Assembly (NCBI GenBank): GCA_963514895.1
Contig: CAUPVK010000002.1
Coordinates: 12,323 to 76,322 of the forward strand
Source: an uncultured Candidatus Saccharibacteria bacterium
GTDB lineage: Bacteria; Patescibacteriota; Saccharimonadia; Saccharimonadales; Saccharimonadaceae
Length of the DNA stretch: 64,000 nt
Direction: 5' to 3'
Positions 27,823 through 43,331 of this stretch are shown here, piece after piece. A program made the position numbers and the translations under genes. The notes beneath the pieces are model-generated. The model was not told where the DNA came from. It did not search any database and saw nothing but the letters and a program-made list of their open reading frames with translations. Within the stretch, counting starts at the first letter, position 1. Every line of letters begins with the position of its first letter.

Positions 27823-28384
27823 TATGTAAAATACCTTTCGCAAAGGTAGTGGCAAGTACTTCTAGCGTCCTACCGATACCCGGAAAATCGCTTTCCGTGA
27901 TATGTATATCCATGTAGTAAAACAAATTATAAACCTGTAAAATATCCTGAATCTTCTCCTCTGAATGTCCTTCCGCCACCATACGATTAGTAAAGGTTTC
28001 GACTAAAAACTGATGAAAGGTATTGGTGGCTTTGCCTTTGCCCGAAGAATAGTGGCTGCGCAGTGTGCGAGAGATGGCTGGGTTATGCCATTCCGCCAGG
28101 ATTTTATTGGACGAAACCAGGCTACGTGACTGCTCAAAAATCTGTCTCACAAGTTCAACCAAGTCCTGCTGCCAATCGATATCATCCATCATTGCCTGGC
28201 GAACGCGGTCGTTCTCCTCAATGTACACATCCAGAAAGATAGCTTCCTTGCCGTCGTAGTAATTATAAAAAGAACCAACTGCTACGCCAGCACGTTTTGC
28301 AATTTCTGAGATCCCGGCCTCTTTATAACCCTTTTTTGAGAAGACGTCATAGGCAGCTGTTTTTAATGCTTGTTTCTTGTCCAA
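27809..28384 (-). CDS. TetR/AcrR family transcriptional regulator
   Basis: The HTH 'KGYKEAGISEIAKRAGVAVGSFYNYYDGKEAIF' is present. The apparent start is a TTG preceded by aaaggaga. Confidence 0.85.
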   Translation of the reverse strand: MDKKQALKTAAYDVFSKKGYKEAGISEIAKRAGVAVGSFYNYYDGKEAIFLDVYIEENDRVRQAMMDDIDWQQDLVELVRQIFEQSRSLVSSNKILAEWHNPAISRTLRSHYSSGKGKATNTFHQFLVETFTNRMVAEGHSEEKIQDILQVYNLFYYMDIHITESDFPGIGRTLEVLATTFAKGILHNEKG

Positions 28385-28413
28385 TGCTCGTAATCTCCTT
28401 TATTGTAATACTC

Positions 28414-28441
28414 TGAATGAATAAATTTTTATATTCATTCA
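28414..28441. promoter_or_regulatory. Candidate TetR operator (perfect 10-bp inverted repeat)
   Basis: TGAATGAATA-aattttta-TATTCATTCA lies 30-57 nt upstream of the TetR start. Confidence 0.5.
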
Positions 28442-28596
28442 TAGTATATTAAAACAATAACGAATCTGTCAATAGGGAGGTTTTCTTGATTATCTTTTAC
28501 TTGGCAGCTCGATTGTGAGCTTACCTCATTAAACGCCCTGTGGCCTGGATTGAGTGTGATTCAGCAAAGATCAACACCTGAAATAACGAGAGTGCG

Positions 28597-29226
28597 TCAT
28601 TGCCCCTCTATCTTATCCATCAGTTTCGTCAGCTTCACGCCACCGTACATCCAGTGGTCAGCGCCGCGGTATGCACCGGAGTTGTTGACTTCGCCGCGTT
28701 GGGTGTAGATCAGGCGGGTGAGGGCAGACAGGCGCCAGGTTTTGCCGCCGTAGGATACCTCGCGTGGGCCGGCTACAACGGCGGTGATAGTTGGGTCTTT
28801 GATAAAGTGGATGCTCGCGCCCTTTTCAATACCCTTTTTATAAAAGCTAAAGCGCTGATCTTGCTGGTGCGCGGTGGTAACGGCTTCGAACGAGTCGGCC
28901 TTGCTAGCGAATTGAGTTGGCTTTGGGTAAATTTGCGTGCCATCAAGGGCAAGCAGCAGCCGCTGGATAAGATATTCATCGAGCGCAAAGAACTCACTCC
29001 GGCCAATGCGGTGCTTGCTAAAGACTTCGTGCAGGAGCTGCTCCTTTTTGTGGTAATTATCTACCTCAATGGCGACCAGCCGCTGCAACCCAGTGATATT
29101 AGAATAGCCGTTGGACTCAAGATACTGCATGCGCGCCTCGAAGCGGTCGGTGCTGGTCTTGCCAATCTTGACCAAGCCATCAATGGCACTGGTCATAACA
29201 TAAATCACTCCGCGCGGCTCGGACAT
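28597..29226 (-). CDS. GIY-YIG-like T5orf172/MUG113 domain protein
   Basis: 'GVIYVMTSAIDGLVKIGKTSTDRFEARMQYL......LLHEVFSKHRIGRSEFFAL' fits the T5orf172 pattern. The C-terminal half was not identified. It is divergent from hsdM. Confidence 0.5.
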   Translation of the reverse strand: MSEPRGVIYVMTSAIDGLVKIGKTSTDRFEARMQYLESNGYSNITGLQRLVAIEVDNYHKKEQLLHEVFSKHRIGRSEFFALDEYLIQRLLLALDGTQIYPKPTQFASKADSFEAVTTAHQQDQRFSFYKKGIEKGASIHFIKDPTITAVVAGPREVSYGGKTWRLSALTRLIYTQRGEVNNSGAYRGADHWMYGGVKLTKLMDKIEGQ

Positions 29227-29292
29227 GGTTTTATTGTAGCAGACTATGGGGTAGGGGAACAGTATTCTAGATAAATCTGCTATAATTCCCTT

Positions 29293-30771
29293 ATGAATAT
29301 GAGGGATCTTGAAAGGCAGCTGTGGGCTGCAGCGGATAAATTACGGGGTAATATCAGCTCGTCGGATTATAAATATGTTGTGTTGGGGCTAATTTTTCTG
29401 AAATATGTTTCAGATGCGTTTTCGGCGCGGTATCAGGCGGCGGTTGATGACAATTATGATCCCGAAGATCGGGATTGGTATCTGGCGGAGAATGTTTTTT
29501 GGATTCCCAAGGAGGCTCGCTGGGAGCACCTCGTGGCAAGCGCCAAGCAGCCAGAAATTGGCGTATTGGTTGATAGCGCCATGGAAGCAATTGAACGCGA
29601 CAATCTAAGTTTGAAGGGCGTTCTGCCGAAAAATTATGCTCGCGAAGCTCTAGATAAACGCCGCCTGGGTGAGCTTATCGATTTGTTTACAAACATCACA
29701 TTTGACACTGCTAGTTCTAAAGATTTGCTTGGTCAAGTCTATGAATATTTTATGGGTATGTTTGCCGACAGCGAGGGTAAACACGGCGGCGAATTCTACA
29801 CGCCGCGCTCCATCGTCAAGCTGCTGGTAGAAATGCTTGAGCCATACAGCGGGCGTGTGTACGACCCATGTTGCGGTAGCGGCGGTATGTTCGTCTGGAG
29901 CGAGAAGTTTGTCGAGGAGCATGCTGGACGTGTCAGTGATATCGCGGTGTATGGCCAGGAGCTCAACGAGACTACCTGGCGATTAGCGAAAATGAACATG
30001 GCAATTCGCGGAATAGATGCAAATATCAAACGCGGCGACACCTTGATGGATGACCAGCTTCCCGACCTGAAAGCGGATTATATCTTGGCCAATCCACCGT
30101 TTAATATTAGTGACTGGGGTCAAGAACATTTGCAGACTGACCCACGCTGGAAGTATGGACTGCCGCCAAAGGGTAATGCTAACTTTGCGTGGATTCAACA
30201 TATGATTCACCATTTGAGCCCGCGCGGTACGGCAGGCTTTGTGTTGGCAAACGGGAGCATGAGCAGCCAAACTGGCGGTGAAGGTGATATCCGTAAGCAG
30301 TTAGTGCTCAATGATATGGTTGACGCTATCGTCACGCTGCCGAGCCAACTGTTTCTCAACGTAGCTATACCGTGCTGCCTCTGGTTTGTGTCGCGTGATC
30401 GCGCCAATCGTCACGGCAAAGTACTGTTCATTGATGGGCGTAATTTGGGCAAAATGGTAACCCGTCGCAACCGCGAGCTGACCGAAGAAGATATTGCCAG
30501 GGTAGCGAAGACATATCATGACTACAAAACCGCCAGTGCGAATTACACTGACCAGCCGGGTTTCTGTAAAGTCGCTGATCTAGAAGAAATCAAGCAGCAT
30601 GATTATGTACTGACACCTGGCCGCTACGTGGGCATTGAAGAAACTGAGGAAGATGATGAGCTGTTCACTGAGAAATTTGCCCGGTTGACAGCTGAGCTAG
30701 AGGGTCAGTTTGCGAAGAGCCGCGAGCTAGAGGCGAAAATCAAGGTCAATTTGGAGAAGATCAAACTATGA
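29293..30771 (+). CDS. hsdM: Type I restriction-modification system, N6-adenine DNA methyltransferase subunit
   Basis: It has an HsdM N-terminal domain ('[10 protein letters not shown]'), the SAM motif '[11 protein letters not shown]' and the catalytic 'NPPFN'. Confidence 0.93.
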
Positions 30772-30801
30772 ATCTTCAAGGGGAGCTAAGCACTGGGGCG
30801 A

Positions 30802-30822
30802 CTATAAAGAACTTCTTTATAG
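30802..30822. promoter_or_regulatory. Perfect palindrome between hsdM and the next gene
   Basis: CTATAAAGAA-c-TTCTTTATAG lies 31 nt after the hsdM stop. It could be a hairpin attenuator/terminator or a protein-binding site. Confidence 0.4.
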
Positions 30823-30910
30823 TACAGTGGTTTTATATTAAAAAGACTCACCTTGTAGTTAAATTAGCACAAAGCTATTCTCGTCCGTCGGTTTCATTCG
30901 GGGGTGGTTT

Positions 30911-32119
30911 GTGAATAAAAAATACTCAATAGAATTTGCCGTAGAGGCTTCGACTGAATTCAAAGCGATCAATCGTCTCAAAGACCTAGGCGTAAGTCAT
31001 GCCGATGAGGCGAAGCTATCCGACCTCGATCGGCAGGCCGGTCTCTTCATGATTAAGGTATCGATGCTAGAGTCTGAAATGACCGATGAGGTGTATCATA
31101 AGATATCTAAGGCAAAAGACGTCTTCATACTTTCTGATGAACTTTCGGCTGCTCGGGGTGAAAAAATCTTACAGCTCACACTGGTGATTGAAAGGCAGCT
31201 TAAGAAGTTGCTTGTCTGCATAATCCCAGAGATAGAAAAGGTTTTGATAGATATCATTAATAATCATCAAAAACATGGCATAAAATCAACACCCACAGGG
31301 ATAATCGAGTGGTGTCAAAAGATTCATGATTTTTCATTTGGTGAGCTTCCGGGCGTTCTAGAGGAAGATATATCACGGCTTGCTAGGGAAAGGCTTAATA
31401 CGGGAGATGCCATGCTGTTGCTAATAGCAGAGTCGAAAGATTTTGATAACCTAAAGTTACGGGCGACAAATTTATTTGAGACCAGGACAGTTTGGAATAG
31501 TATTTGTTCTATTTTGGAAAGCCCTGTGCAGTACGAGCATATATCTGGAGCTTTGAATAAAGTTATAGATGCACGCAATAAAGCGGCGCATCAGAGCATA
31601 ATAACCAAAAAAATACTCGACCAAACTAGAAAAAATCAGAAACACATAATGTCACGCATTGGTACTATTAAGAGCACCTACCGTGAAAACCTAAAGGTGA
31701 ACATGGAGCAGCTAAGTAAGTCTATGAAAGCTATCATGGATTCTGTAGCAACGATTGATCCTATGATATTTACCGAATATCAAAAACATATTTCTCAGAC
31801 ATTTCGACCTCTTACCGAAGCTGTTGCTAGATTGAAGCTAAATATTACCTCGCCAGAATTCAAAAAAAATGTTACATATAATTCAGAAATCCAGTCTCAG
31901 TTATCGAAAGCCACTGCCGAATCTCTTAGAAACATGAAGTCCTTGCAAGTGTATAACGATATTGCTAGAGAGCTGGCAAAAAATAATTTCACTAGGTATT
32001 TGCAAAATTCACTAAGCGAGATAGACAGAATACAGCCAGATATTCAGAGACTACTTGATACAAAGGGGACAAGAGGGGGTGATGAGGCGGCAGAAAAAGA
32101 TGAGGAGCAGAAACAATGA
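30911..32119 (+). CDS. Uncharacterised protein with a HEPN-like (Swt1-type) R-x4-H motif, embedded in the Type I R-M operon
   Basis: This is a 402-aa ORF with a GTG start. 'FGELPGVL...VWNSICSIL...LNKVIDARNKAAHQSI' is present, with the R codon at 31574-31576 and the H codon at 31589-31591. The all-helical, coiled-coil-like C-terminal half ends in an acidic tail. The stop overlaps the hsdS start (ATGA). Confidence 0.5.
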   Translation: MNKKYSIEFAVEASTEFKAINRLKDLGVSHADEAKLSDLDRQAGLFMIKVSMLESEMTDEVYHKISKAKDVFILSDELSAARGEKILQLTLVIERQLKKLLVCIIPEIEKVLIDIINNHQKHGIKSTPTGIIEWCQKIHDFSFGELPGVLEEDISRLARERLNTGDAMLLLIAESKDFDNLKLRATNLFETRTVWNSICSILESPVQYEHISGALNKVIDARNKAAHQSIITKKILDQTRKNQKHIMSRIGTIKSTYRENLKVNMEQLSKSMKAIMDSVATIDPMIFTEYQKHISQTFRPLTEAVARLKLNITSPEFKKNVTYNSEIQSQLSKATAESLRNMKSLQVYNDIARELAKNNFTRYLQNSLSEIDRIQPDIQRLLDTKGTRGGDEAAEKDEEQKQ

Positions 32120-33156
32120 TGCAGATTGTTTCGCTCTCCGATGCAATTACCTTGCAGCGTGGGTTTGACTTGCCCACCTCACAACGTAGACAGGGTAAAT
32201 ATCCAGTCGTAGCGTCTACCGGAACAACTACGACTCATGATAAGTTTAAGGTAAAAGGTCCAGGTGTGGTTATTGGTCGCTCTGGCAGTATTGGTGGTGG
32301 TCAATATGTCGAAAGTGACTTTTGGCCCCTAAATACTACACTTTGGGTCAAGGATTTTAAGGGTAATGATGAGAAATTTATTTATTATACTCTTAAGTCT
32401 TTAGACTTTTCTAGCTTTAACGTAGGTGCAGCTGTACCTACGTTAAATAGGAACCACTTGTCGGCGCTAAAAGTGCGCATTCCTGACGTAGATAAGCAAA
32501 AGAAAATTGCCAATATCCTCGGCAGTCTTGATGAAAAAATCGAGCTCAATCGCCGCATGAACAAAACCCTCGAACAGCTCGGTCAAGCTCTCTTTCGTCA
32601 TTATTTTGTTGATAAAGCTAGGCAGAGTAATGGCAATATACAGACTATACCTTTAGGAAAAAAGCTTCATCCAAAAAGAGGCAGAAGCCTTCAAGCTAGA
32701 GATATGATTTGTGGTGACACGCCGGTTATTAGCGGTGGACTGAAGCCAGCCGGATTTCACAATGAAGCAAATACGACCGCGCCAGTTATCACGATAAGTG
32801 CATCTGGAGCAAATGCTGGTTTTGTATCTGTCTGGGGTGAACCAGTTTGGTCGGCAGACTCTTCGTATATTGACTCAACAATTACCAAATATGTCTATAC
32901 CTACTATTTATTCCTCAAGAACAAGCAAAAAGAGATATACGATATGCAAACTGGCTCTGGTCAGCCGCATATTTATCCAAAGCACATAGAGCTTTTGGAG
33001 ATTGCTGATTTATCAGAATGCGAGTTTAATGATTTCGAGCAGAGAGTACGACCATTGTTTGATATGATACATGAAAACAAGAAGGAAATAGATTATTTAT
33101 CCAACATTCGTGATTTGCTTTTACCAAAACTAATTTCCGGAAAGATTAAGATATGA
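32116..33156 (+). CDS. hsdS: Type I restriction-modification system specificity subunit
   Basis: Two target-recognition domains are separated by the conserved helical spacer 'IANILGSLDEKIELNRRMNKTLEQLGQALF', and it ends with 'IRDLLLPKLISGKI'. Confidence 0.85.
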   Translation: MMQIVSLSDAITLQRGFDLPTSQRRQGKYPVVASTGTTTTHDKFKVKGPGVVIGRSGSIGGGQYVESDFWPLNTTLWVKDFKGNDEKFIYYTLKSLDFSSFNVGAAVPTLNRNHLSALKVRIPDVDKQKKIANILGSLDEKIELNRRMNKTLEQLGQALFRHYFVDKARQSNGNIQTIPLGKKLHPKRGRSLQARDMICGDTPVISGGLKPAGFHNEANTTAPVITISASGANAGFVSVWGEPVWSADSSYIDSTITKYVYTYYLFLKNKQKEIYDMQTGSGQPHIYPKHIELLEIADLSECEFNDFEQRVRPLFDMIHENKKEIDYLSNIRDLLLPKLISGKIKI

Positions 33157-34442
33157 AACGCACAAAAGCACAAATAGACAATTTATTAGACGATATAGCG
33201 CAATTTACCATAGTGCTAAGCAGTAGTAATTATAGTATAAACTATGGACCCAAAAACCTAAATTTCTCATCTTTCGAGAGAAGTATCGATGAAAATCTTA
33301 AATACTGGCACGATAAAAAGGGAGGCCAAGGCTTTTATGAGGAGTGGAAAAACCTCAAAAATAAATTTAATAGTATTAAAGAACATTTAGAGGCCGTTAG
33401 CGATAGCCCTGAATCAAAAGGTAATCTATCAAACTATCTATATAGTCATTTATCCAATGACAGAGTCGATAATAATGGAAAGCATACATATAGATTATCT
33501 GTAAATAGCCCTATTATCTCTGACGCAAATTGGCAATCCATAGACAGATTCATAGATTTTTATCTTGACCGTGTAGATGATGGTAGAGAATTACCAGACG
33601 CAATACGAAGGTACGTAGAGTTATGCAAAACTCCAATTCAGGTAGGAAATAGCCTATATCAAAGTTCAAATTATTCATATTATCCTGCGTTATTTATACT
33701 AAAAAATGAATTATCGCCTAAAAATGTAAGTATTAAGAATTTTGAACAAAAGACGCTACGGCCAGCGCAAGATAAGCTAGAGCAGTTGTTGCAAGAAGCT
33801 GGCGAGAACCAACAAGAAATAACCCATTTTATAGAAGAGAAGCATAAGGAAGTCCAGGATCAAGTTGATAAGAATATCGCTGAGATGGACGACTACAAAT
33901 TTAAAGTCAATGATTGGGAGACGAAAAAACATAAAAAACTGGATGTACTGGAAGATACTTATAGAAAGAAGTTGCAGCTTGAAGCGCCGGAAGTGCTTTG
34001 GAATGAACGGTCTGAAAAGTATAGAAAAAGAGCCAATTGGTGGACTGTAGGCTTAGTTCTTGCGGCGATTATCTTGTTGCTTGTCATCGCCTGGTTTGTC
34101 CATTCGCTTCATGAATTCCCAAAGGGGATTACTGAAAAAGTACCATTCTTGTCGCAGCAAGTACTTTTTATTGGTGTCATTTCTTTCTTTGTTTATATCA
34201 TACGCGTCATAGTAAAAATCGTTATGTCAAATCACCACATTGCAATGGAGTATGAACAAAAAGCGGCATTGACGAGGTTTTATCAGGCGTTAACCTACAA
34301 AGGGATTGAGGTAGACGATAACGAGAAGTTAATCATCATGAGCGCTCTATTCTCTAAAGCTGACACCGGTTTGGTTAAAACGAGTGAATCTGTTGACTTG
34401 GATAGCGTCTTGGGATTGATTACAAGGAATTCTGGAAAATAG
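33153..34442 (+). CDS. Uncharacterised protein with a C-terminal two-TM module, embedded in the Type I R-M operon
   Basis: This is a 429-aa ORF. The N-terminal ~290 aa are soluble, Lys/Glu/Asn-rich with a coiled coil. Then come 'ANWWTVGLVLAAIILLLVIAWFV' and 'VLFIGVISFFVYIIRVIVKIV', followed by a ~70-aa tail. The start overlaps the hsdS stop (ATGA). Confidence 0.55.
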   Translation: MKRTKAQIDNLLDDIAQFTIVLSSSNYSINYGPKNLNFSSFERSIDENLKYWHDKKGGQGFYEEWKNLKNKFNSIKEHLEAVSDSPESKGNLSNYLYSHLSNDRVDNNGKHTYRLSVNSPIISDANWQSIDRFIDFYLDRVDDGRELPDAIRRYVELCKTPIQVGNSLYQSSNYSYYPALFILKNELSPKNVSIKNFEQKTLRPAQDKLEQLLQEAGENQQEITHFIEEKHKEVQDQVDKNIAEMDDYKFKVNDWETKKHKKLDVLEDTYRKKLQLEAPEVLWNERSEKYRKRANWWTVGLVLAAIILLLVIAWFVHSLHEFPKGITEKVPFLSQQVLFIGVISFFVYIIRVIVKIVMSNHHIAMEYEQKAALTRFYQALTYKGIEVDDNEKLIIMSALFSKADTGLVKTSESVDLDSVLGLITRNSGK

Positions 34443-34528
34443 ATATAAGTGTTATAATGATGTGAAAATGATCAATAAAACATAAAATACGTTACCTGAA
34501 GAAAATACTCTAAATTTTAAAAGCCTAT

Positions 34529-37500
34529 ATGACCGAATCTCAAATCGAACAATACGCGCTTGATATTCTAGCTAATCTTGGCTGGCAAGTTTTACATGGG
34601 TCAGATATTGGTCCGGATGGTGCTATGGCTGAGCGTGAGCTGCGGCAGGTAGTGCTGCTGGGGCGGCTGTATGGTGCCCTGGTGCGGCTCAATCCACACA
34701 TTCCAGAACCAGCTTTAAATGAAGCGATGCGGCGTTTAACGCAGATTAGTAAGCCAAGCTTGATCGAGAATAACCACGTTTTTCATCAACTGCTGGTGGC
34801 TGGTGTGCCGGTGCAGTATCGCACATCGAGTGGCGAAGTGAAACACGATATCGTGCGGGTGGTTGATTTTACCTCGCCAAAAAACAATGATTTTGCGGCG
34901 GTGAATCAGCTGACGGTTCTGCAGGGTGACTATAATCGCCGGCCGGACATTGTGCTATTTGTGAATGGCTTGCCGCTGGTGGTGATTGAGCTGAAAAATG
35001 CGGCCGACACGAAGGCGAATTTGGCGGCAGCGTATCAGCAAATCCAGACGTACAAGCGAGAGATTAGTGATCTGTTCCGCTTTAATGAATTATGCGTAAC
35101 GAGCGATGGACTAGAGGCGGAGATGGGCACGATCACCAGTCCGCTGGAACGAATGATGCCATGGAAGACGATTGATGGTGAGAAGGAGGTTGGCAATGTG
35201 CCGATGCTGGGAGTGTTGCTGCGTGGTGTGTGCACGCCTGAACGCTTGCTGGATGTGGTGCAGAATTTTATCGTATTTGAGCATAGTGATGGTGACAAAT
35301 TGATTAAGAAAGTAGCTGCTTACCATCAATATTGGGTGGTAAATAAGGCGCTTGATCGGACGCTGGCAGCCAGTAGTGAACGCGGCGACCAGCGGGCTGG
35401 CGTAGTCTGGCATACGCAAGGGTCGGGCAAGAGCTTGAGCATGGTGTTTTACACTGGCAAGCTGATGAAGTCGCGCGATTTGCACAACCCGACCATCGTG
35501 GTGGTGACGGATCGCAATGATCTTGATGGTCAATTATTCGGTACGTTTAGTGCTTGTCGCGAGCTACTGGGAGAAGATCCAAAGCAAGCTAATTCACGGA
35601 GTGAACTCAGGAAGCTGTTGCAGCGCGAAGCAGGTGGAATTATCTTCACAACAATCCAAAAATTCTCGCCTGAGGGTGACGAAGATAAATTACCGATTTT
35701 GACTGATCGACGCAATGTTATCGTGATGGCAGATGAGGCCCATCGCAGTCAATATGGCTTGAAGGCACATGTCCGAGCTAGTGATGCTCAGCTGGTGTAT
35801 GGTTATGCCAAGTATATGCGCGATGCCTTGCCGAGTGCGAGCTACATTGGCTTTACGGGTACACCGATTGAAACGGATGACAAGTCAACGCCAGCGGTGT
35901 TTGGCGACTATATCGATATTTATGACGTCGAGCAGGCGGTGAAAGACGGCGCAACGGTGCCGATTTATTATGAGAGTCGGCTGGTTGATTTGAACATGGA
36001 CGAGGCAACGCGGCAGTGGCTGGATAAGGAAGTTGATGATTTGCTGGAGGGCGAAGAATTGAGCCGTCAGGATGCACTGAAGGCCGAGTATGCACAGAAA
36101 GAAGCCATCGTTGGTAATAGTGAGCGGCTGAATACTATCGCTTTGGACATTATTCAGCACTTTGAGGCTCGGCAAGGCGTCCTGAGTGGCAAAGGTATGA
36201 TCGTGACGATGAGCCGCAGTATTGCGGCTGATTTGTATGAAAAAATTGTGGCGTATCGGCCGGATTGGCACAGTGACGATGACGCACGCGGCGTAGTAAA
36301 GGTGATTATTACTGGTAGTGCTAGTGACCCTGACCATTTGCAACCGCATATTCGTAACAAGCAGCGGGTAAAGACGATCGAAAAGCGCATCAAAGATCCG
36401 AACGATCCGCTTGAATTGGTGATTGTATGTGACATGTGGCTGACAGGATTTGATGTGCCGAACATGCACACCATGTATCTGGATAAACCGCTCAAAGGGC
36501 ATAATTTGATGCAAGCGATTGCCAGGGTGAATCGAGTGTTTCCTGGGAAAACCGGCGGTTTGGTGGTTGACTATCTGGGTGTAGCGGGGGCGCTGCGCGA
36601 TGCTATTTCTGACTATACACGGAGCGGTGGTCAAGGCGTACCACAGCTTGATATTGCTGAGGCGGTGGCACAGATGCAGATGCGTTACGAGGTGGTGCGC
36701 GATTTGTTTGGTAACTTTGACTATCAACGATATTTTACCGCACCAACCGACCAACAGCTACAGATTATCTTGGATGCAGAGGAATATATTTTAGGATTGG
36801 AAGATGGTGAGAAGCGGTTGAAGCAGCATGTTTTGGAACTGAGTAAAGCATTTGCATTGGCGATGCCGAGGCCCGAGGCGCTGAAAATTCGCGAAGAAGT
36901 GGCGCTCTTCCAGGCAATAAAAGCTCGGCTGGAGAAAGTGTCCAGCTCGGCGGTGGTGACTGATGCTGAGTATCGCAGTGCGCTGAAACAAATTGTTGAT
37001 AAAGCAATTGCGCCAGTCGGTGTGGTCGATGTGTTTGAGGCGGCAGGGCTCAAAAAGCCGGAATTGTCGATTTTAAGTGATGAGTTTTTGGCCGAAATTC
37101 GTCATATGGAGCGCAAGAATTTGGCGGTGGAGGCGTTGCAAAAGCTGCTCGCTGATGAAATTAAGCTACGATTTTCGCGCAATTATGCCAAGGATACGAA
37201 GTTCTCAGACTTGCTGAGTCAAGCCTTGACACGGTATAGAAATGGGACAATTGAGGCCGCGCAAGTGATAGAGGAGCTGATTGCTATCGGCCAGGAAGTG
37301 CGCCAAACTGTCGAGAATGGAACGATTGACGGCCTCAGCGAGGATGAGGTTATCTTTTATGACGCGCTGGTTGAAAATGGTAGTGCTCGCGAAGTACTGG
37401 GTGATGCGCAGCTGCGTGATATCGCAAAAGTGTTACTAGAGCAAGTGCGTCGTGATGCCACGATTGACTGGGCAGAGCGTAAAAATGTTCAGGCAAAATT

Positions 37501-37660
37501 GAGGGTTAACGTCAAAAAGACGTTGGCAAAATATGGCTACCCACCAGATCAGCAGGCGCTAGCAACTGACATGGTACTAGAACAAGCTAAGCGCTATGGT
37601 AACGAGTGGAGTCAAAGACGCGCGGCGTATGATGCTGGTGGAGCGAGTCTGCTTGATTAA
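34529..37660 (+). CDS. hsdR: Type I restriction enzyme, endonuclease/translocase subunit
   Basis: It has an N-terminal PD-(D/E)xK region ('PDIVLFVNGLPLVVIELK') and SF2 helicase motifs 'HTQGSGKS', 'VMADEAHRSQ', 'FTGTP' and 'QAIARVNR'. Confidence 0.93.
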   Translation: MTESQIEQYALDILANLGWQVLHGSDIGPDGAMAERELRQVVLLGRLYGALVRLNPHIPEPALNEAMRRLTQISKPSLIENNHVFHQLLVAGVPVQYRTSSGEVKHDIVRVVDFTSPKNNDFAAVNQLTVLQGDYNRRPDIVLFVNGLPLVVIELKNAADTKANLAAAYQQIQTYKREISDLFRFNELCVTSDGLEAEMGTITSPLERMMPWKTIDGEKEVGNVPMLGVLLRGVCTPERLLDVVQNFIVFEHSDGDKLIKKVAAYHQYWVVNKALDRTLAASSERGDQRAGVVWHTQGSGKSLSMVFYTGKLMKSRDLHNPTIVVVTDRNDLDGQLFGTFSACRELLGEDPKQANSRSELRKLLQREAGGIIFTTIQKFSPEGDEDKLPILTDRRNVIVMADEAHRSQYGLKAHVRASDAQLVYGYAKYMRDALPSASYIGFTGTPIETDDKSTPAVFGDYIDIYDVEQAVKDGATVPIYYESRLVDLNMDEATRQWLDKEVDDLLEGEELSRQDALKAEYAQKEAIVGNSERLNTIALDIIQHFEARQGVLSGKGMIVTMSRSIAADLYEKIVAYRPDWHSDDDARGVVKVIITGSASDPDHLQPHIRNKQRVKTIEKRIKDPNDPLELVIVCDMWLTGFDVPNMHTMYLDKPLKGHNLMQAIARVNRVFPGKTGGLVVDYLGVAGALRDAISDYTRSGGQGVPQLDIAEAVAQMQMRYEVVRDLFGNFDYQRYFTAPTDQQLQIILDAEEYILGLEDGEKRLKQHVLELSKAFALAMPRPEALKIREEVALFQAIKARLEKVSSSAVVTDAEYRSALKQIVDKAIAPVGVVDVFEAAGLKKPELSILSDEFLAEIRHMERKNLAVEALQKLLADEIKLRFSRNYAKDTKFSDLLSQALTRYRNGTIEAAQVIEELIAIGQEVRQTVENGTIDGLSEDEVIFYDALVENGSAREVLGDAQLRDIAKVLLEQVRRDATIDWAERKNVQAKLRVNVKKTLAKYGYPPDQQALATDMVLEQAKRYGNEWSQRRAAYDAGGASLLD

Positions 37661-37905
37661 TGCGAGGCTCCATGAAAATCCCCACCACTATCAAACCCAA
37701 CTCCCGCCACCGCGAAGAAGTTGTGGTGGGTAGCGACGGCACGTATATCATCTACACCAAGGCGCCGGCAATTGAGGGCCGGGCGAACGCGGCGGCCATT
37801 AAGCTGTTGGCTAAGCATTTTGGTGTGAGCAAAAGCCAGGTTCGACTGTTGCGCGGGGCGACATCGAAGTATAAGGTATTTGATATTGACGGCATAGTTC
37901 TATAA
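37660..37905 (+). CDS. DUF167 (YggU-like) protein
   Basis: 'YTKAPAIEGRANAAAIKLLAKHFGVSKSQVRLLRGATSKYKVF' matches the DUF167 core. The first ATG overlaps the hsdR stop (TAATG). An alternative ATG lies at 37672. Confidence 0.65.
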   Translation: MRGSMKIPTTIKPNSRHREEVVVGSDGTYIIYTKAPAIEGRANAAAIKLLAKHFGVSKSQVRLLRGATSKYKVFDIDGIVL

Positions 37906-38235
37906 AACACACAGCTGGCTCGGCACAGAGTACCTAACAAAAATGACAATATAGCTTTTGTGAACAGTATATCGCCAAGGATTCTAGCGCATATAATGTA
38001 CACGAGAAAAGTGAGGCGCGATAAAACGCTGGAACGTAAATTACCGAATATCTACGCCTTCCTTCCGCAAGAGCTTGCCTCGTCTTATCTCATTAGATAA
38101 AGCGACGACAACACCATCATTAATCCGATAAGTATTTCATATAGTGCATTAATCTGCTTTTACAATGCTGACGTGCACAAGCGCAGGAAGGAAGAGTAAG
38201 ACACTCAAAAAATCTTAATATTCAGGTGTATATTT

Positions 38236-39750
38236 CTACGGATAATTGACACCTGGCACAGTTTTGCCCAATAGCGTCTGCACGGTGACGAAGCGATAGC
38301 CTTGCTGCTTGAGCGTGCTGAGGATGCAGGGCACGGCATTGACAGAGGTGGGATGGATGTCGTGCATGAGGATGATAGCGCCTGGCCGTGCACCAGCGAC
38401 AGCACGGTTGCAGACAATGGTGCTATTGCGATCGGCCCAGTCGCGCGTATCGACTGACCACAAGATGGAGGCCATACCGCGCTGGCGCAGTTGCTCGAGA
38501 ATGACACTATTTACTGCGCCATATGGTGGGCGCATGATAGTCGGTGCAACGCCTGTTGCTTGGGCAATAGCATTGTTGGTTCGGTCGATCTCGCTGCCGA
38601 TTGCTTCTGCACTATACTGTGGCAGAACCGGATGGCTCCACGAGTGATTCCCGAGCTGGTGACCACTGGTATGGATACGGCGCACGACGTCAGCACGAGC
38701 TGCAACTTTGCTGCCGATCATGAAGAATGTGCCTTTTGCGCCGTACTGGTCTAGGGTGTCAAGTAGCTCATTAGTATATGGCCCAGGCCCATCGTCGAAG
38801 GTGAGGGCAATGCAGGCTTGAGCGCACGATCGAGAAGGCGCTGGTGTGGCTGGCACGGGGGCAGCAATTGGTTTTGGCTGTGGTTTTGGCAGAGCAGGGA
38901 TAGTCGCAATCTGCCGCGCCTGGGTGGTTTGCAATGCAGCGAGGATACTCGTGAAGGGGAGAGAGATCGTCATTGTACCATAAGATGACGGCACGAGCGC
39001 AGCTTGGCCAAAAGGCCAGGCAAGCGCATTATCATTGGTGATAATGAAGTTGGTGAGTGCATCCTCTGTGACCATTTCGCCAAGATCGACGGCTGGCTGC
39101 TGGCGCTCGGCAATCGTGGCAGCAACGGAGCGCTGTGCCGCATCAATGATGGTGCGCAGGTATGCGGTATTGCCACCAACGAGGTCGCGCAGGGTGATAG
39201 CCGCGCCCGTCTGCTTGTTGAATGTCCAAAATCGGGTGAAGCTGGCGGGGTGAGCACCGTGAGTGTCTTGGTTAGCTTGAATAATAACGGATAGGGCAGC
39301 ATTGGTATTATGGGTAATTTGGTAGCTGATTGCCTCGGTCATTGGTCGGTGGAAGGTGCGGCCAGCTGCGACGCTTTGGCGAAACTCATGATCGAGCTGG
39401 TCGATGGCGCTCGCGATAGTAGTGTCGATCGTGTTATTGCCTGTCAGTGGGTATTCGAGCGAGACGTTTTCTTTAGCAGAGGTGCGGCTGACCAGCTTCG
39501 AGCGAATACCTTGGTAGTGCGAATCGACGAAGGAGTATTTTTCATCTGTTTTGTCGGTTGTGCGCGCGGCTGGTGGGGAAGGCTGTGGTGCAGTAGGTCG
39601 CACCACATGGACGATAATAAGGGTAATAATGAGGCCACATAATGCACAAGCAAGTAGCGCAAGCAAAATGACCATGCGGCGCCGCGCTTGGGTACAGCGT
39701 TTGTGGTGCCGCTGCAAGCGTGATGCTGGTGAGGGAGATTGACGCTCCAT
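38236..39750 (-). CDS. Polysaccharide/peptidoglycan deacetylase (NodB domain) with an N-terminal TM anchor and a DUF3298/DUF4163-like domain
   Basis: 'IALTFDDGPGPYT', 'GNHSWSHP' and 'MRPPYG' are NodB motifs. A TGcTATACT box lies 6 nt upstream of the ATG. Confidence 0.85.
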   Translation of the reverse strand: MERQSPSPASRLQRHHKRCTQARRRMVILLALLACALCGLIITLIIVHVVRPTAPQPSPPAARTTDKTDEKYSFVDSHYQGIRSKLVSRTSAKENVSLEYPLTGNNTIDTTIASAIDQLDHEFRQSVAAGRTFHRPMTEAISYQITHNTNAALSVIIQANQDTHGAHPASFTRFWTFNKQTGAAITLRDLVGGNTAYLRTIIDAAQRSVAATIAERQQPAVDLGEMVTEDALTNFIITNDNALAWPFGQAALVPSSYGTMTISLPFTSILAALQTTQARQIATIPALPKPQPKPIAAPVPATPAPSRSCAQACIALTFDDGPGPYTNELLDTLDQYGAKGTFFMIGSKVAARADVVRRIHTSGHQLGNHSWSHPVLPQYSAEAIGSEIDRTNNAIAQATGVAPTIMRPPYGAVNSVILEQLRQRGMASILWSVDTRDWADRNSTIVCNRAVAGARPGAIILMHDIHPTSVNAVPCILSTLKQQGYRFVTVQTLLGKTVPGVNYP

Positions 39751-40280: not shown

Positions 40281-43200
40281 ATGAATACCGTCACCACTTT
40301 CATTATTGTTTTTGGCTCGGCCGGCCTTATTCTTATCATCTTGTTTGTTGCTTTCATCGTCTATCGCAACAGTATGCGCGAGGCCAAGAATTACGAGCGA
40401 GGCCTCAAGATGGTGCCGATTCTCATCCACTTGCCGCCCGCTAGTGACGATATCGACGGTGGTGGGCGCGACAAGCGTGACCTCACAGAGGAGGTGCTAT
40501 CGCAAGCCCAAGTGATGTACAACATCATTGCGAGTACCAGCACCAAGGGCTTTATGAGCCGGATCTATGGGCAGCGCCATGTGTCATTTGAGATTGTAGC
40601 ACGCGAGGGTCTGGTGTATTACTATGCAGTGGTGCCAACAGTGCTGACGGACACAGTGCGCCAGGCAATTGCTGCAGCCTACCCATCGGCACGGTTAGAG
40701 GAGGTGTCGGAGCACTCAGTGTTTAGTAAGGTGGGTAAGGCGAGTGGGACGATTGGTGGTGAGTTTACTCTGCGCAAAGAATTTATTTACCCGATTTCTA
40801 CCTATATGGAGTCTAAGCGCGATGCGTCGCGGGCGCTGCTCAATGCAGTGTCTTCGGCTGGGCGCGAGGATGGGGTGGGAATCCAATTTTTGATCCGCCC
40901 AGCGTATGAGAAGTGGACGAAGCGCTCTATCTCGGCTGCTGAGCAGATTGTCAAGAACAAGGGTGAGAAAAAGAGTAGTGGCGGCAGTGGCCTCTCGGCG
41001 CGTGATGTTATGCAGGCACTATGGAAGCCGCCTGAGGCAAGTGACAAGAAGGAATTCCAAGCCGAAAAGCCGCTCAGTGCGGTGGAGCAGGCTAAGGTTG
41101 ATGCTATCCAAGAAAAGATTCGCTACCCCGGCTATGAGGTAATGATCCGCGTGGTGGTATCGTCCAACACGGCGGCGCGCTCACAGGTGCTGCTCAAGAA
41201 TATTGTGGCGGCGTTTGCACTGTTTGATTCGCCGAGCTTTAATGGCTTTAAGTTTCACCTTACTAAGAATGTCGATGAGCTCGCGACAGCCTTTATCTTC
41301 CGATTCTTCCCGCAGGCAAATAGCCGCGATATCCTCAACTCAGTCGAGCTTGCCACTCTCTTTCATTTGCCAGACCAAAATAGCATTCCTACCTCGCAAG
41401 TCAAGCGCCAGATGAGTAAGCAAGTCGATGGCCCAACAGAGGTGATGGAGACGGGGCTATTGCTCGGCTACAATGAGTTCCGCGGCGTGCGCAAGCCGAT
41501 TCGCCTGGCCGATAAAGACCGTCGGCGTCACATCCATATCATTGGTCAGACGGGTGTAGGTAAGTCGGTCTTGCAAGAGAACTTAGCCTACCAGGATATG
41601 CTGGCGGGGCGGGGTTTTGCCTTGGTTGATCCACACGGTGACCTGGCTGAGGCATTGCTCGCCAAGGTGCCACGTGATCGGGTAGAGGATATTGTCTACT
41701 TCGACCCAGGTGATATGAGTAACCCGATTGGTCTTAATATGTTTGAGTTCGACCACCCTGACCAGAAGGACTTCTTGGTGCAGGAGGCGATCAACATGCT
41801 GTATGGCTTGTACGACCCAGGTCACACTGGTATCGTTGGGCCACGCCTCGAGCACATCTTCCGTAACTGTGCGTTGCTGCTGATGGCTGATCCTGCGGGT
41901 GGAACGTTTGTTGATGTGCCAAAGCTGCTGGTGGATGAGCAATTCCGCAATGCTAAGCTCAAATACGTAACAGACCGGCAGGTGCTCGACTTTTGGACGA
42001 AGGAGTTCCCAGCCTCGCAGCGCTCCAACGAAGCTGGTGATTTGATTAGCTGGGTGATCTCCAAGTTTGGTCCATTCATTAGCAACGATGCGATGCGTAA
42101 TATTATTGGTCAGACTAAGAGTGGCTTTAATTTCCCTGAGATTATGAATAACAACAAGATTTTGCTTGTTAACCTCTCCAAAGGTAAGATGGGTGATCTC
42201 AACTCGAAGTTGCTTGGTATTATCTTTGTCATGAAGTTCCAGGCGGCGGCAATGGCTCGGGCTAATATCCCCGAGCACGAGCGCAAGGACTTTACACTCT
42301 ACGTTGACGAGTTCCAGAACTTTGCCACCGATAGCTTTGAGACGATCCTTAGTGAGGCACGTAAGTATCGCTTGAGTTTGGTTTTGGCCAACCAGTTTAT
42401 GACGCAGCTCAAGGAAGAACTACGCGAGGCTATCCTTGGTAACGTTGGTACAACCATTACCGGCCGAATTGGTACGACCGATGCTGAGATTATGGTCAAG
42501 CGCTATACGCCTGTCTTTACTGCTGAGGATTTGACCAAGCTACCAAACTTTGAGTCGGTCTGTGTGGCGCAGATTAATGGCACGCCGTCAGCGCCATTTA
42601 GTATGGCGTGGATTCCGCCAATGGGCGAACCAAACCAGCAGTTGAGCGATGCCCTCAAGAAGCTTTCGGCCGCGAAGTATGGCCGGCCGCGTGACCAAGT
42701 GGAACGCGATATATCTGCCCGTATTAGTGTGCAGCAACCTAGCCAGCCAGCAGCCGGAGCAGGGCGCTCAGGAGGCGCGGCTGGTGGTGGGTCGTCTTTC
42801 CTCGATGAATGGCTTGCAAAGCGTAAGCAGATGAATGGAAAGAAACCGCAATCGGCGGCAGCACCATCGAGCGCGCAAGCCTCACGGCCCGGTAGTCCAG
42901 CCGCTCGACCAACTCGGCCACAAACCACACCAGCTTCCTCAGCTCAGCCATTGCGTGCCCAGCCAGCCATGCCGCCAGCTTCTTCATCCTCTCAAGTACC
43001 ACGGCCACAGCCAGCTAGCACTCCCCGCACTATGCCAAATCCAAGCGCGTCATCTCCATCGTCGGCTGCTCAGCCTACTCCACCACCGTCGCCAGCGGTG
43101 CAGGATGCGCTGGATAGAGCACGCCATGCTGCGCGGCCCAATATCCTTGGTGGCCAGCAGACCGAGGCGCGTGCTCAGTCTGCTCCACCGGTTGCACCGT

Positions 43201-43331
43201 CGCCCGTTCCCGAGCCAGCTATGCCATCGCCAGAAGAGCTAGAGCGCGAAGCCTTGCGCCGCCAAGGCACTCTCAACACGCATGGCGACCTGAGCGGCGA
43301 GCCACAGGAAGTGTCGATTAAGTTACATTGA
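40281..43331 (+). CDS. Membrane-anchored TraD/VirD4/HerA-type P-loop ATPase with a long Pro/Ala/Ser-rich C-terminal tail
   Basis: It has an N-terminal TM helix, Walker A 'IIGQTGVGKSVL', 'VDPHGDL', Walker B 'LYVDEFQNF' and 'LSLVLANQF'. The last ~200 aa are low complexity. Confidence 0.7.
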   Translation: MNTVTTFIIVFGSAGLILIILFVAFIVYRNSMREAKNYERGLKMVPILIHLPPASDDIDGGGRDKRDLTEEVLSQAQVMYNIIASTSTKGFMSRIYGQRHVSFEIVAREGLVYYYAVVPTVLTDTVRQAIAAAYPSARLEEVSEHSVFSKVGKASGTIGGEFTLRKEFIYPISTYMESKRDASRALLNAVSSAGREDGVGIQFLIRPAYEKWTKRSISAAEQIVKNKGEKKSSGGSGLSARDVMQALWKPPEASDKKEFQAEKPLSAVEQAKVDAIQEKIRYPGYEVMIRVVVSSNTAARSQVLLKNIVAAFALFDSPSFNGFKFHLTKNVDELATAFIFRFFPQANSRDILNSVELATLFHLPDQNSIPTSQVKRQMSKQVDGPTEVMETGLLLGYNEFRGVRKPIRLADKDRRRHIHIIGQTGVGKSVLQENLAYQDMLAGRGFALVDPHGDLAEALLAKVPRDRVEDIVYFDPGDMSNPIGLNMFEFDHPDQKDFLVQEAINMLYGLYDPGHTGIVGPRLEHIFRNCALLLMADPAGGTFVDVPKLLVDEQFRNAKLKYVTDRQVLDFWTKEFPASQRSNEAGDLISWVISKFGPFISNDAMRNIIGQTKSGFNFPEIMNNNKILLVNLSKGKMGDLNSKLLGIIFVMKFQAAAMARANIPEHERKDFTLYVDEFQNFATDSFETILSEARKYRLSLVLANQFMTQLKEELREAILGNVGTTITGRIGTTDAEIMVKRYTPVFTAEDLTKLPNFESVCVAQINGTPSAPFSMAWIPPMGEPNQQLSDALKKLSAAKYGRPRDQVERDISARISVQQPSQPAAGAGRSGGAAGGGSSFLDEWLAKRKQMNGKKPQSAAAPSSAQASRPGSPAARPTRPQTTPASSAQPLRAQPAMPPASSSSQVPRPQPASTPRTMPNPSASSPSSAAQPTPPPSPAVQDALDRARHAARPNILGGQQTEARAQSAPPVAPSPVPEPAMPSPEELEREALRRQGTLNTHGDLSGEPQEVSIKLH

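Follow-up and report, generated by a model that had tools for sequence, protein, structure and literature searches.

The 64,000-nucleotide stretch of Saccharibacteria DNA analyzed here (contig CAUPVK010000002.1; hereafter the window) carries a Type I restriction-modification (R-M) operon in which two additional open reading frames (ORFs), ORF2 and ORF4, are embedded on either side of hsdS. Our analysis indicated, with a probability of roughly 0.7, that this operon is a Type I R-M scaffold holding independently exchangeable embedded anti-phage genes, namely a homologue of the abortive-infection protein AbiZ (ORF4) and a HEPN-like gene (ORF2). The observations behind this reading are the gene identities, the conservation of motifs, the variability of the two slots that hold the embedded genes, and the mosaic breakpoints around them. 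The arrangement represents layered defence by gene embedding, which is of a known kind and is found here in a candidate phyla radiation (CPR) bacterium.

Organization of the operon

A listing of ORFs reproduced exactly the gene order and coordinates given in an earlier description of this DNA made from its letters alone (the sequence-only reading). The five genes, with lengths in amino acids (aa), are as follows:

29293-30771, + strand: hsdM, 492 aa, Type I N6-adenine DNA methyltransferase
30911-32119, + strand: ORF2, 402 aa, GTG start; occupies the hsdM-to-hsdS slot
32116-33156, + strand: hsdS, 346 aa, specificity subunit with two target-recognition domains (TRDs)
33153-34442, + strand: ORF4 (AbiZ/DUF6161 homologue), 429 aa; occupies the hsdS-to-hsdR slot
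34529-37660, + strand: hsdR, 1043 aa, restriction subunit

The Type I R-M identity proposed in the sequence-only reading was borne out for all three hsd genes by both Pfam and PADLOC. HsdM matched N6_Mtase (1.3e-113) and HsdM_N (6e-26) in Pfam and MTase_I (3e-206) in PADLOC; HsdS matched Methylase_S in two stretches and Specificity_I (1.4e-109); and HsdR matched HSDR_N (1e-47), SWI2_SNF2 (3.7e-80), T1RH-like_C (4.9e-114), and also ResIII, alongside REase_I (1142 bits). The NPPF and DPCCGSGG motifs were present in the HsdM translation, and the PD-x13-ELK nuclease motif and the DEAH box were read from that of HsdR. Judged from these translations, the operon is intact, with the predicted catalytic motifs of HsdM and HsdR in place. 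Both junctions of hsdS are ATGA overlaps, as had been stated before, and were read directly in the sequence: the ORF2/hsdS junction at 32116-32119 (caATGAtg) and the hsdS/ORF4 junction at 33153-33156 (atATGAaa). The G+C fraction was 0.49-0.50 in hsdM and hsdR versus 0.40 in ORF2, 0.41 in hsdS, and 0.37 in the AbiZ homologue. An ORF2 locus at 97% identity was found in a Candidatus Nanosynbacter metagenome-assembled genome, and identical contigs were found in several samples of human metagenomes; the host belongs to the oral Saccharibacteria, with a Nanosynbacter-like genome.

Variable contents of the two slots

To place these genes in context, ORF2 loci were gathered from genomes, metagenomes, and exact-protein look-ups, and their neighbours were annotated. 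The gene orders were as follows (unnamed proteins are given by length; RT, reverse transcriptase):

Window: hsdM-ORF2-hsdS-AbiZ-hsdR
L011: ORF2-hsdS-AbiZ-HExxH protein-small membrane protein-hsdR
L005: hsdM-ORF2-hsdS-Schlafen-AbiLi-RloB-hsdR
L006: hsdM-ORF2-hsdS-Shedu-S24 peptidase-hsdR
L007: hsdM-ORF2-AbiU2-hsdS-DRT UG13b RT-258 aa
L008: hsdS'-hsdM-ORF2-Ppl-like-hsdS-Schlafen/ATPase
L013: hsdM-RhuM-241 aa-ORF2-hsdS-DUF6119-hsdR
L014: like L013 except for PIN after hsdS
L015, L019, and L020: hsdS'-hsdM-NYN-ORF2-AAA_15 ATPase-hsdS-hsdR
L016: hsdM-ORF2-hsdS-281 aa-hsdR
L017: hsdM-130 aa-228 aa-ORF2-hsdS-AAA_15 ATPase-RloB-hsdR
L018: hsdM-Fic-163 aa-ORF2-AbiU2-hsdS-Ppl-like-hsdR
L027: hsdM-ORF2-hsdS-OLD-type ATPase/TOPRIM-hsdR-GmrSD
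L028: hsdM-DUF4357-ORF2-251 aa-hsdS-RT-...-hsdR

The hsdS-to-hsdR slot was found to hold AbiZ, AbiZ with an HExxH protein, Schlafen with AbiLi/RloB, Shedu with an S24 peptidase, DRT UG13b, DUF6119, PIN, a Ppl-like protein, or an OLD-type ATPase-TOPRIM protein. The hsdM-to-hsdS slot held ORF2 either alone or with RhuM, Fic, NYN, DUF4357, AbiU2, an AAA_15 ATPase, or a Ppl-like protein. Counted over the two slots, the cargo amounted to at least 15 families, known or unknown.

The sequence-only reading had regarded hsdS, ORF2, and the 429-aa gene as one obligate composite system held together by translational coupling, and the neighbourhood data have already largely refuted this model, which we now consider very improbable. 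Consistent with it, both hsdS junctions are ATGA overlaps, the arrangement is kept in near-identical contigs from several samples, and L011 also has the order ORF2-hsdS-AbiZ, with an AbiZ 79% identical to that of the window. However, outside the group of the window itself, L011 was the only locus in which AbiZ joined ORF2; other defence genes took its position beside an ORF2 that is 96-97% identical (L005, L006, and L012), and the divergent ORF2 loci, with about a dozen cargo sets, contained AbiZ in none. The second TRD of hsdS has also been swapped independently of the cargo, and AbiZ homologues elsewhere are solitary. The coupling that had been taken to mark both genes as partners rather than passengers was likewise generic: a 4-nucleotide (nt) overlap with the hsdS stop recurred for the Schlafen, DRT (RT), DUF6119, PIN, Ppl-like, and OLD cargo, and is therefore a property of the slot and no evidence of functional partnership. 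Thus, the two genes are not enriched next to each other, whereas the enrichment of ORF2 next to R-M genes was upheld.

Loci with closely related enzymes placed ORF2 in the same category as AbiZ. The HsdM lineage is far commoner than ORF2, its clusters at no less than 79% identity numbering more than 120. Operons with an HsdM 89% identical to ours (8 places shown) had two genes, of 103 aa and 234 aa, in the hsdM-to-hsdS slot, and those with an HsdM 81% identical (8 places shown) contained DUF3800 and a 68-aa gene in that slot, which contradicts the notion that this R-M lineage needs ORF2. A search of all ORFs in these 16 loci with the ORF2 profile gave no match; therefore, ORF2 is also cargo and not a subunit of the enzyme lineage. 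The 103-aa and 234-aa genes were considered as a split ORF2, and this was rejected on the same lack of an ORF2-profile match.

Some of the cargo belonged to no Pfam family. Embedded genes of this sort, 100-280 aa in length, lie in L029 (10485-11500), L017 (7917-9004), and L013 (7625-8350), and further ones in L028 (4087-4842), L037 (10748-11503), and L016 (11345-12190). The L016 gene, the only one of these scanned against PADLOC, gave no match there. By the 'guilt by embedding' argument discussed below, these genes are candidate defence genes from Patescibacteria.

Mosaic structure of the locus

Breakpoints in the alignments delimited the exchanged segments. In comparison with L005 and L006, the window aligned over 29273-32615 and then again from 34528, one base before the hsdR ATG, whereas the sequence between differed. 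About 11% of the bases of hsdM differed from L005/L006, nearly all of them synonymously (137 synonymous versus 16 non-synonymous), and about 2% differed in ORF2 together with the 139-nt spacer preceding it, with 13 synonymous versus 13 non-synonymous changes in the ORF2 codons. Such a pattern suggests that the ORF2 segment was transferred recently and has been under relaxed or diversifying selection. The specificity gene is also mosaic: its part at 32497-33156 is 89% identical to L013, with which AbiZ is not shared, and the breakpoints of this shuffling lie within 32497-32615, the first TRD being common with L005/L006 and the second with L013. Together, these breakpoints point to cargo exchange by homologous recombination using the conserved hsd sequences as flanks, in addition to the familiar shuffling of hsdS domains.

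A near-perfect palindrome of 16+16 nt was also observed at 32416-32447, just upstream of the hsdS breakpoints; it may be a chance occurrence or a recombination-prone site.

ORF4 as an AbiZ homologue

The 429-aa gene, which the sequence-only reading had not recognised, was matched to AbiZ/DUF6161 by both PADLOC and Pfam when the profile hidden Markov model searches were run. The PADLOC AbiZ profile was matched at 1.1e-48, with residues 44-417 on positions 30-388 of 398, and Pfam DUF6161 at 1.4e-54 (185 bits; cut-off, 27). On the extent of these matches, ORF4 is identified as a full-length AbiZ/DUF6161 homologue. The two-helix membrane module described earlier was located as follows:

34038-34226, + strand: predicted transmembrane hairpin of ORF4, hydrophobic helices at residues ~296-320 and 333-358

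The hydropathy profile (Kyte-Doolittle, 19-residue windows) showed peaks of 2.9 and 2.4, with about 70 residues beyond the hairpin, so the earlier interpretation of this gene as a membrane effector was right in kind. A DUF6161 protein of a lactococcal plasmid showed 27% identity to ORF4 over 277 residues (E, 4e-33), and both the hairpin and the SNHHI-x-EY-x-QKAALT segment after it were common to the two proteins.

ORF4 therefore shares with AbiZ of Lactococcus lactis (Durmaz and Klaenhammer 2007) a near end-to-end profile match, the two-helix hairpin, and the SNHHI-x-EY-x-QKAALT segment, whereas it is only distantly identical to the lactococcal member and is embedded in a CPR Type I operon. 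The plasmid homologues (Sutcliffiella, Lactococcus, and Vibrio) are solitary genes without R-M neighbours or a conserved partner, which speaks only to their genomic autonomy. AbiZ, a single-gene abortive-infection protein, is believed to work with the phage holin to bring about premature lysis (PMC13064643), and premature lysis of infected cells with a reduced phage burst is a phenotype known only for lactococcal AbiZ (PMC13064643). By analogy, the homologue described here would cooperate with a phage holin so that infected cells lyse prematurely.

ORF2 as a predicted HEPN-like protein

In contrast to ORF4, the 402-aa product of ORF2 belonged to no family in Pfam, PADLOC, or NCBIfam at normal thresholds, and its PHROGs matches were at chance level only. 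An exhaustive profile search recovered 115 family representatives at 50% identity; at 90% identity, the family forms 47 clusters, all unnamed. All five ORF2 loci with named genomes are from Patescibacteria; four come from Saccharibacteria and one from Nomurabacteria. E. coli genomes and plasmid collections contained nothing related to the locus or to ORF2. When distant relatives were sought by a profile-based protein search, the matches were mostly members of the same family. Only two distant members (23-25% identity) could be placed on contigs, and neither was in an R-M locus. The features of ORF2 referred to below are as follows:

30911-31138, + strand: N-terminal domain (residues 1-76), beta-alpha-beta-beta-alpha-beta, predicted ACT/ferredoxin-like (AlphaFold2, block pLDDT 71-92)
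31190-31204, + strand: E94-R-Q-L-K98, matching the HEPN E-x3-[KR] acidic motif
31574-31591, + strand: R222-N-K-A-A-H227, an R-[N/D/H]-x3-H motif, predicted HEPN catalytic site

The R-x4-H motif pointed out in the sequence-only reading corresponds to RNKAAH at residues 222-227. Across 65 ORF2-related sequences, down to 16% identity, E94, R222, and H227 were the sole invariant residues; K98 and N223 were invariant as well as E94 within the close family, and the wider consensus around E94 was VExxLR. The published hallmarks of HEPN proteins include R-x4-6-H with N, D, or H after the arginine, an upstream E-x3-[KR], a motif placed where a core helix ends and the next loop begins, and a variable insert before that helix (PMC3710099). 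The AlphaFold2 model of ORF2 has a helix at 209-226, a loop at 227-232, and a helix at 233-250, with the motif spanning the helix end and the loop start, and a helical insert (105-199) between the E94 helix and the motif helix. ORF2 accordingly displays the sequence hallmarks and, in the predicted model, those of motif position and insert.

Weak profile matches were of the same nature. Over the motif region, ORF2 itself had sub-threshold matches to HEPN_Cthe2314 (E, 0.035; 14.5 bits; cut-off, 27.1) and RiboL-PSP (E, 0.43). Among the 65 members, weak Pfam matches were to RiboL-PSP (7), Swt1 (6), Abi_2 (4), DUF3644 (3), and Cthe_2314 (1), and the families matched by more than two members were only HEPN families and CHAP (4). 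The best HEPN match among the relatives was 1.8e-5 to Abi_2, and all were below curated thresholds. Weak PADLOC matches of the relatives were largely to HEPN-type models (AbiD, DUF3644, HEC-08, Csx1, and Cas13a), and no PADLOC model recognises the family. ORF2 is thus probably a new HEPN family, closest to the Abi2/Swt1/RiboL-PSP group, and a HEPN-like predicted RNase; the earlier RNase-like reading of this gene was right in kind with respect to these hallmarks, whereas the HEPN fold was not confirmed.

The Abi2/AbiD/AbiF and Swt1-like/RiboL-PSP families, whose models were those most touched by the ORF2 relatives, are single-protein HEPN effectors recorded inside R-M operons (PMC3710099, Table 1). 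ORF2 differs from them by its additional N-terminal alpha/beta domain and by a C-terminal helical extension of about 115 residues, clade-specific and with a charged tail. Moreover, the ORF2 of the window matched none of these families at an E of 0.01 or better, and its named hosts are Patescibacteria only. In Foldseek searches against the Protein Data Bank (PDB), the N-terminal domain matched TM1266 (2nzc; probability, 0.99; E, 0.07) and the ACT domain 3ibw (probability, 0.94), the E-values for this domain being weak (about 0.05-0.08). The whole ORF2 model was matched through its N-terminal domain only, and nothing in a viral library matched the model. In this model, the domain is a possible sensor or dimerisation module.

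A CHAP peptidoglycan-hydrolase domain was observed in four distant ORF2 relatives (best E, 1.4e-14), an unexpected fusion for a HEPN-like protein.

Proposed function and competing explanations

In the model that we favour, that of exchangeable anti-phage cargo in a Type I scaffold, ORF2 would consist of an ACT-like N-terminal domain, a helical core carrying E-x3-K and R-N-x3-H, and a clade-specific helical tail. Most likely, it would act as a metal-independent RNase that is turned on during infection and halts translation. DNA restriction would form the first line of defence and the two suicide or dormancy effectors the second. Restriction and effectors are probably expressed together because the genes are tightly packed on one strand with two short spacers only. 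The RNase activity, its trigger, co-transcription, and the mechanism of exchange are the parts of this model that we infer.

Several results weigh against this explanation. No HEPN model in Pfam reached its gathering score for the ORF2 of the window. The ORF2 core model (pLDDT 85) retrieved no solved HEPN structure from the PDB in Foldseek (best E, 0.5), and PDB sequence profile searches with two ORF2 alignments (A1 and A2) gave chance-level matches only. A search for repeats or recombination sites at the cassette borders found short chance-level repeats only; therefore, the exchange mechanism is drawn from the breakpoints only. The sampling was small: it comprised some 14 distinct architectures with ORF2 and two HsdM lineages lacking it, for the most part on metagenome contigs. 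Finally, ORF2 keeps its slot beside an HsdM only 31-32% identical to ours (L008 and L015, with ORF2 41-42% identical), which fits a functional tie to the enzyme better than a pure passenger.

Such a tie is the essence of a PrrC-like guard, in which ORF2 would be bound and silenced by the HsdM/HsdS core until an anti-restriction protein frees it to cleave tRNA or other RNA, with AbiZ acting independently. We consider this explanation unlikely, yet we retain it because ORF2 holds its slot in two Type I families that are unrelated to each other. In the clade at 40% identity or above, the 13 distinct architectures embedded in Type I loci have ORF2 on the same strand, between hsdM and hsdS. ORF2 carries HEPN catalytic motifs, as does PrrC, which provides the precedent (PMC3710099). 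The much faster evolution of ORF2 than of HsdM, evident from the substitution counts given above, would be expected under phage counter-measures. Beyond Type I loci, ORF2 is associated with a second kind of restriction-like system in L026 (1199-9494), where it lies downstream of SecA, with a Ymh-type HEPN gene, a PLD/SNF2 helicase-nuclease, and an Eco57I/MmeI-like methyltransferase coming next. On the other hand, ORF2 lacks the ABC ATPase domain that forms the regulatory half of PrrC, and HsdM proteins 81-89% identical to ours occur in operons without ORF2. HsdM and HsdR 94-96% identical to those of the window tolerate ORF2 alleles at 48% (L013 and L014), against a tight co-evolving interface, and other cargo often lies between ORF2 and hsdM or hsdS. 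Neither the distant relatives at 23-25% identity nor the Nomurabacteria homologue, the sole member of the clade at 40% or above without an R-M neighbour, is beside R-M genes. A bolder version, which we hold to be slightly more doubtful still, is that ORF2 embodies an independent, ATPase-less form of the PrrC principle specific to CPR/Patescibacteria, in which a HEPN RNase with an ACT-like sensor domain would dock on the HsdM/HsdS of at least two unrelated Type I families and fire when a phage disables restriction.

Alternatively, ORF2 could be a non-catalytic accessory (for example, one that regulates restriction or modification, alleviates restriction, or senses a ligand) or a toxin-like, locus-stabilising addiction module, which we judge improbable. 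The resemblance of its N-terminal domain to ligand-binding ACT/PII-like folds, the failure of its core to match a solved HEPN structure, and its retention while neighbours change are in line with such a role, and the long helical C-terminal region with its charged tail might serve as a module for protein interaction. That E94, R222, and H227 are strictly invariant across so divergent a superfamily, however, is typical of an active site rather than a scaffold. In addition, Pfam scans revealed no helix-turn-helix DNA-binding domain of the kind found in R-M controllers, no small antitoxin-like gene was conserved next to ORF2, and the company of ORF2 consists almost wholly of defence effectors. 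Predicted effectors carried as exchangeable cargo remain, in our view, the best explanation for the locus.

Spacers and flanking genes

The two gaps noted in the sequence-only reading, of 139 nt and 86 nt, were correct in length, and their description is amended here by two features:

30768-30914, + strand: 48-aa ORF bridging the 139-nt spacer, overlapping the hsdM stop (ATGA) and the ORF2 start (GTGA); annotated by gene callers
34443-34528, + strand: 86-nt spacer, AT-rich (22% G+C), with TGTTATAAT at 34450-34458

The 48-aa ORF was considered as a conserved, coupled micro-gene and rejected as such. Its substitutions among relatives were 0-1 synonymous versus 2-5 non-synonymous (with only 2-5 substitutions to judge by), the 51-aa (L020) and 54-aa (L026) ORFs at the same position had no similarity to it, and L027 has no spacer at all, its hsdM overlapping ORF2 directly. 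Because the substitutions are nearly all non-synonymous and the counterpart small ORFs are unrelated, the 48-aa ORF is probably non-coding.

In the 86-nt spacer, TGTTATAAT was spotted by eye as an extended -10-like motif. Loci without AbiZ realign with the window only from 34527/34528, whereas the alignment with the AbiZ cassette of L011 extends to 34462. On these alignments, the spacer goes with the AbiZ cassette and not with hsdR, and each cargo cassette may bring its own hsdR expression signal, with TGTTATAAT as a possible hsdR promoter travelling with the AbiZ cassette. This promoter is put forward only tentatively because a strict consensus scan for promoters and terminators gave no + strand promoter in either spacer, promoter-like sites being fewer than in shuffled sequences. 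An Rfam scan of 28000-39000 at E up to 0.1 found no RNA family; therefore, nothing in the spacers hints at an RNA antitoxin or a riboswitch.

Several genes flank the operon. A T5orf172/MUG113 (GIY-YIG-like) gene at 28597-29226 on the - strand is divergent from hsdM and matched the PADLOC candidate PDC-S57 (4.5e-51); a T5orf172 gene is also present in L018, 3' of hsdR, and the gene of the window may be a further defence gene flanking the operon. At the other end, a DUF167/YggU-family gene (37660-37905) overlaps the hsdR stop by one base; a DUF167/YggU homologue also lies downstream of hsdR in L013, and DUF2779 or YgjP-like genes lie there in other loci. A DUF8128/TraG-D_C (type IV coupling-protein-like) gene was found a few kb past hsdR both in the window (40281-43331) and in the divergent L017 (18871-19176), a recurrence that suggests either a conserved neighbourhood or a conjugative-element context.

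Relation to known systems

The arrangement recalls PrrC of the EcoprrI Type Ic locus and its relative RloC. The prrC gene is placed between hsdS and hsdR, whereas ORF2 lies between hsdM and hsdS. In both cases, a HEPN-type RNase gene, only predicted as such for ORF2, is carried inside an hsdMSR operon on the same strand, where it would provide a second, suicidal line of defence (PMC3710099). PrrC is almost exclusively embedded in Type I R-M loci (Payne et al., 10.1101/2024.01.29.577857), as is the ORF2 clade. Unlike PrrC and RloC, ORF2 has no N-terminal ABC/Rad50-like ATPase in Pfam and PADLOC scans and carries the 76-residue ACT/ferredoxin-like domain instead, and no sequence similarity between it and the Pfam or PADLOC models for PrrC was detectable. 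For many HEPN families, an embedded position in R-M operons has been listed (PMC3710099).

Genes nested within Type I R-M loci are usually defence genes in the same orientation (10.1101/2024.01.29.577857), and those found embedded within Hma, BREX, DISARM, and Type I R-M systems have the same orientation in 96.7% of cases (Payne et al. 2024, 10.1101/2024.01.29.577857). Our loci resemble the 'guilt by embedding' cases of that survey in that diverse defence genes, both known and candidate, are nested in a multi-gene system, and PDC-S05/RhuM and PDC-S57 are shared candidates. The survey covered RefSeq genomes, and ORF2 is recognised by no model of PADLOC-DB v2.0.0, whereas the present comparison adds slot borders that are base-precise, lying at the stop of hsdS and the start of hsdR, and turnover among closely related oral strains.

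We found no prior description of this locus in the literature searched. The Type I loci of Campylobacter jejuni, with their rlo ('restriction-linked ORF') genes, also have variable extra ORFs among hsdM, hsdS, and hsdR, in a different organism and with different gene families. The RloB-family cargo of L005 and L017 bears that name. The arrangement itself is not new, as abortive-infection genes nested in Type I loci have been on record since PrrC and were the subject of a systematic survey in 2024; what is new here is a HEPN-like family recognised by no library, the CPR setting, and the clear turnover of slots among related strains.

Biological implications

The genomes of Saccharibacteria and other CPR bacteria are under 1 Mb. 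Our findings suggest that such a small genome packs layered immunity into a single operon and that related oral strains swap their second-line effectors. In one source, CPR bacteria are described as almost entirely without CRISPR-Cas (PMC4742961), and among their restriction classes, Type I is the most abundant (bioRxiv 10.64898/2026.07.13.738296). The locus supplies a testable candidate HEPN family together with recurrent unknown cargo genes that are defence candidates by embedding, and its practical value is that it offers candidates and illustrates cassette turnover in nature, rather than that it establishes a new principle. If the doubtful idea of an ATPase-less PrrC analogue were true, ORF2 would represent a portable 'guard' for the most abundant restriction system of these tiny, largely CRISPR-less episymbionts.

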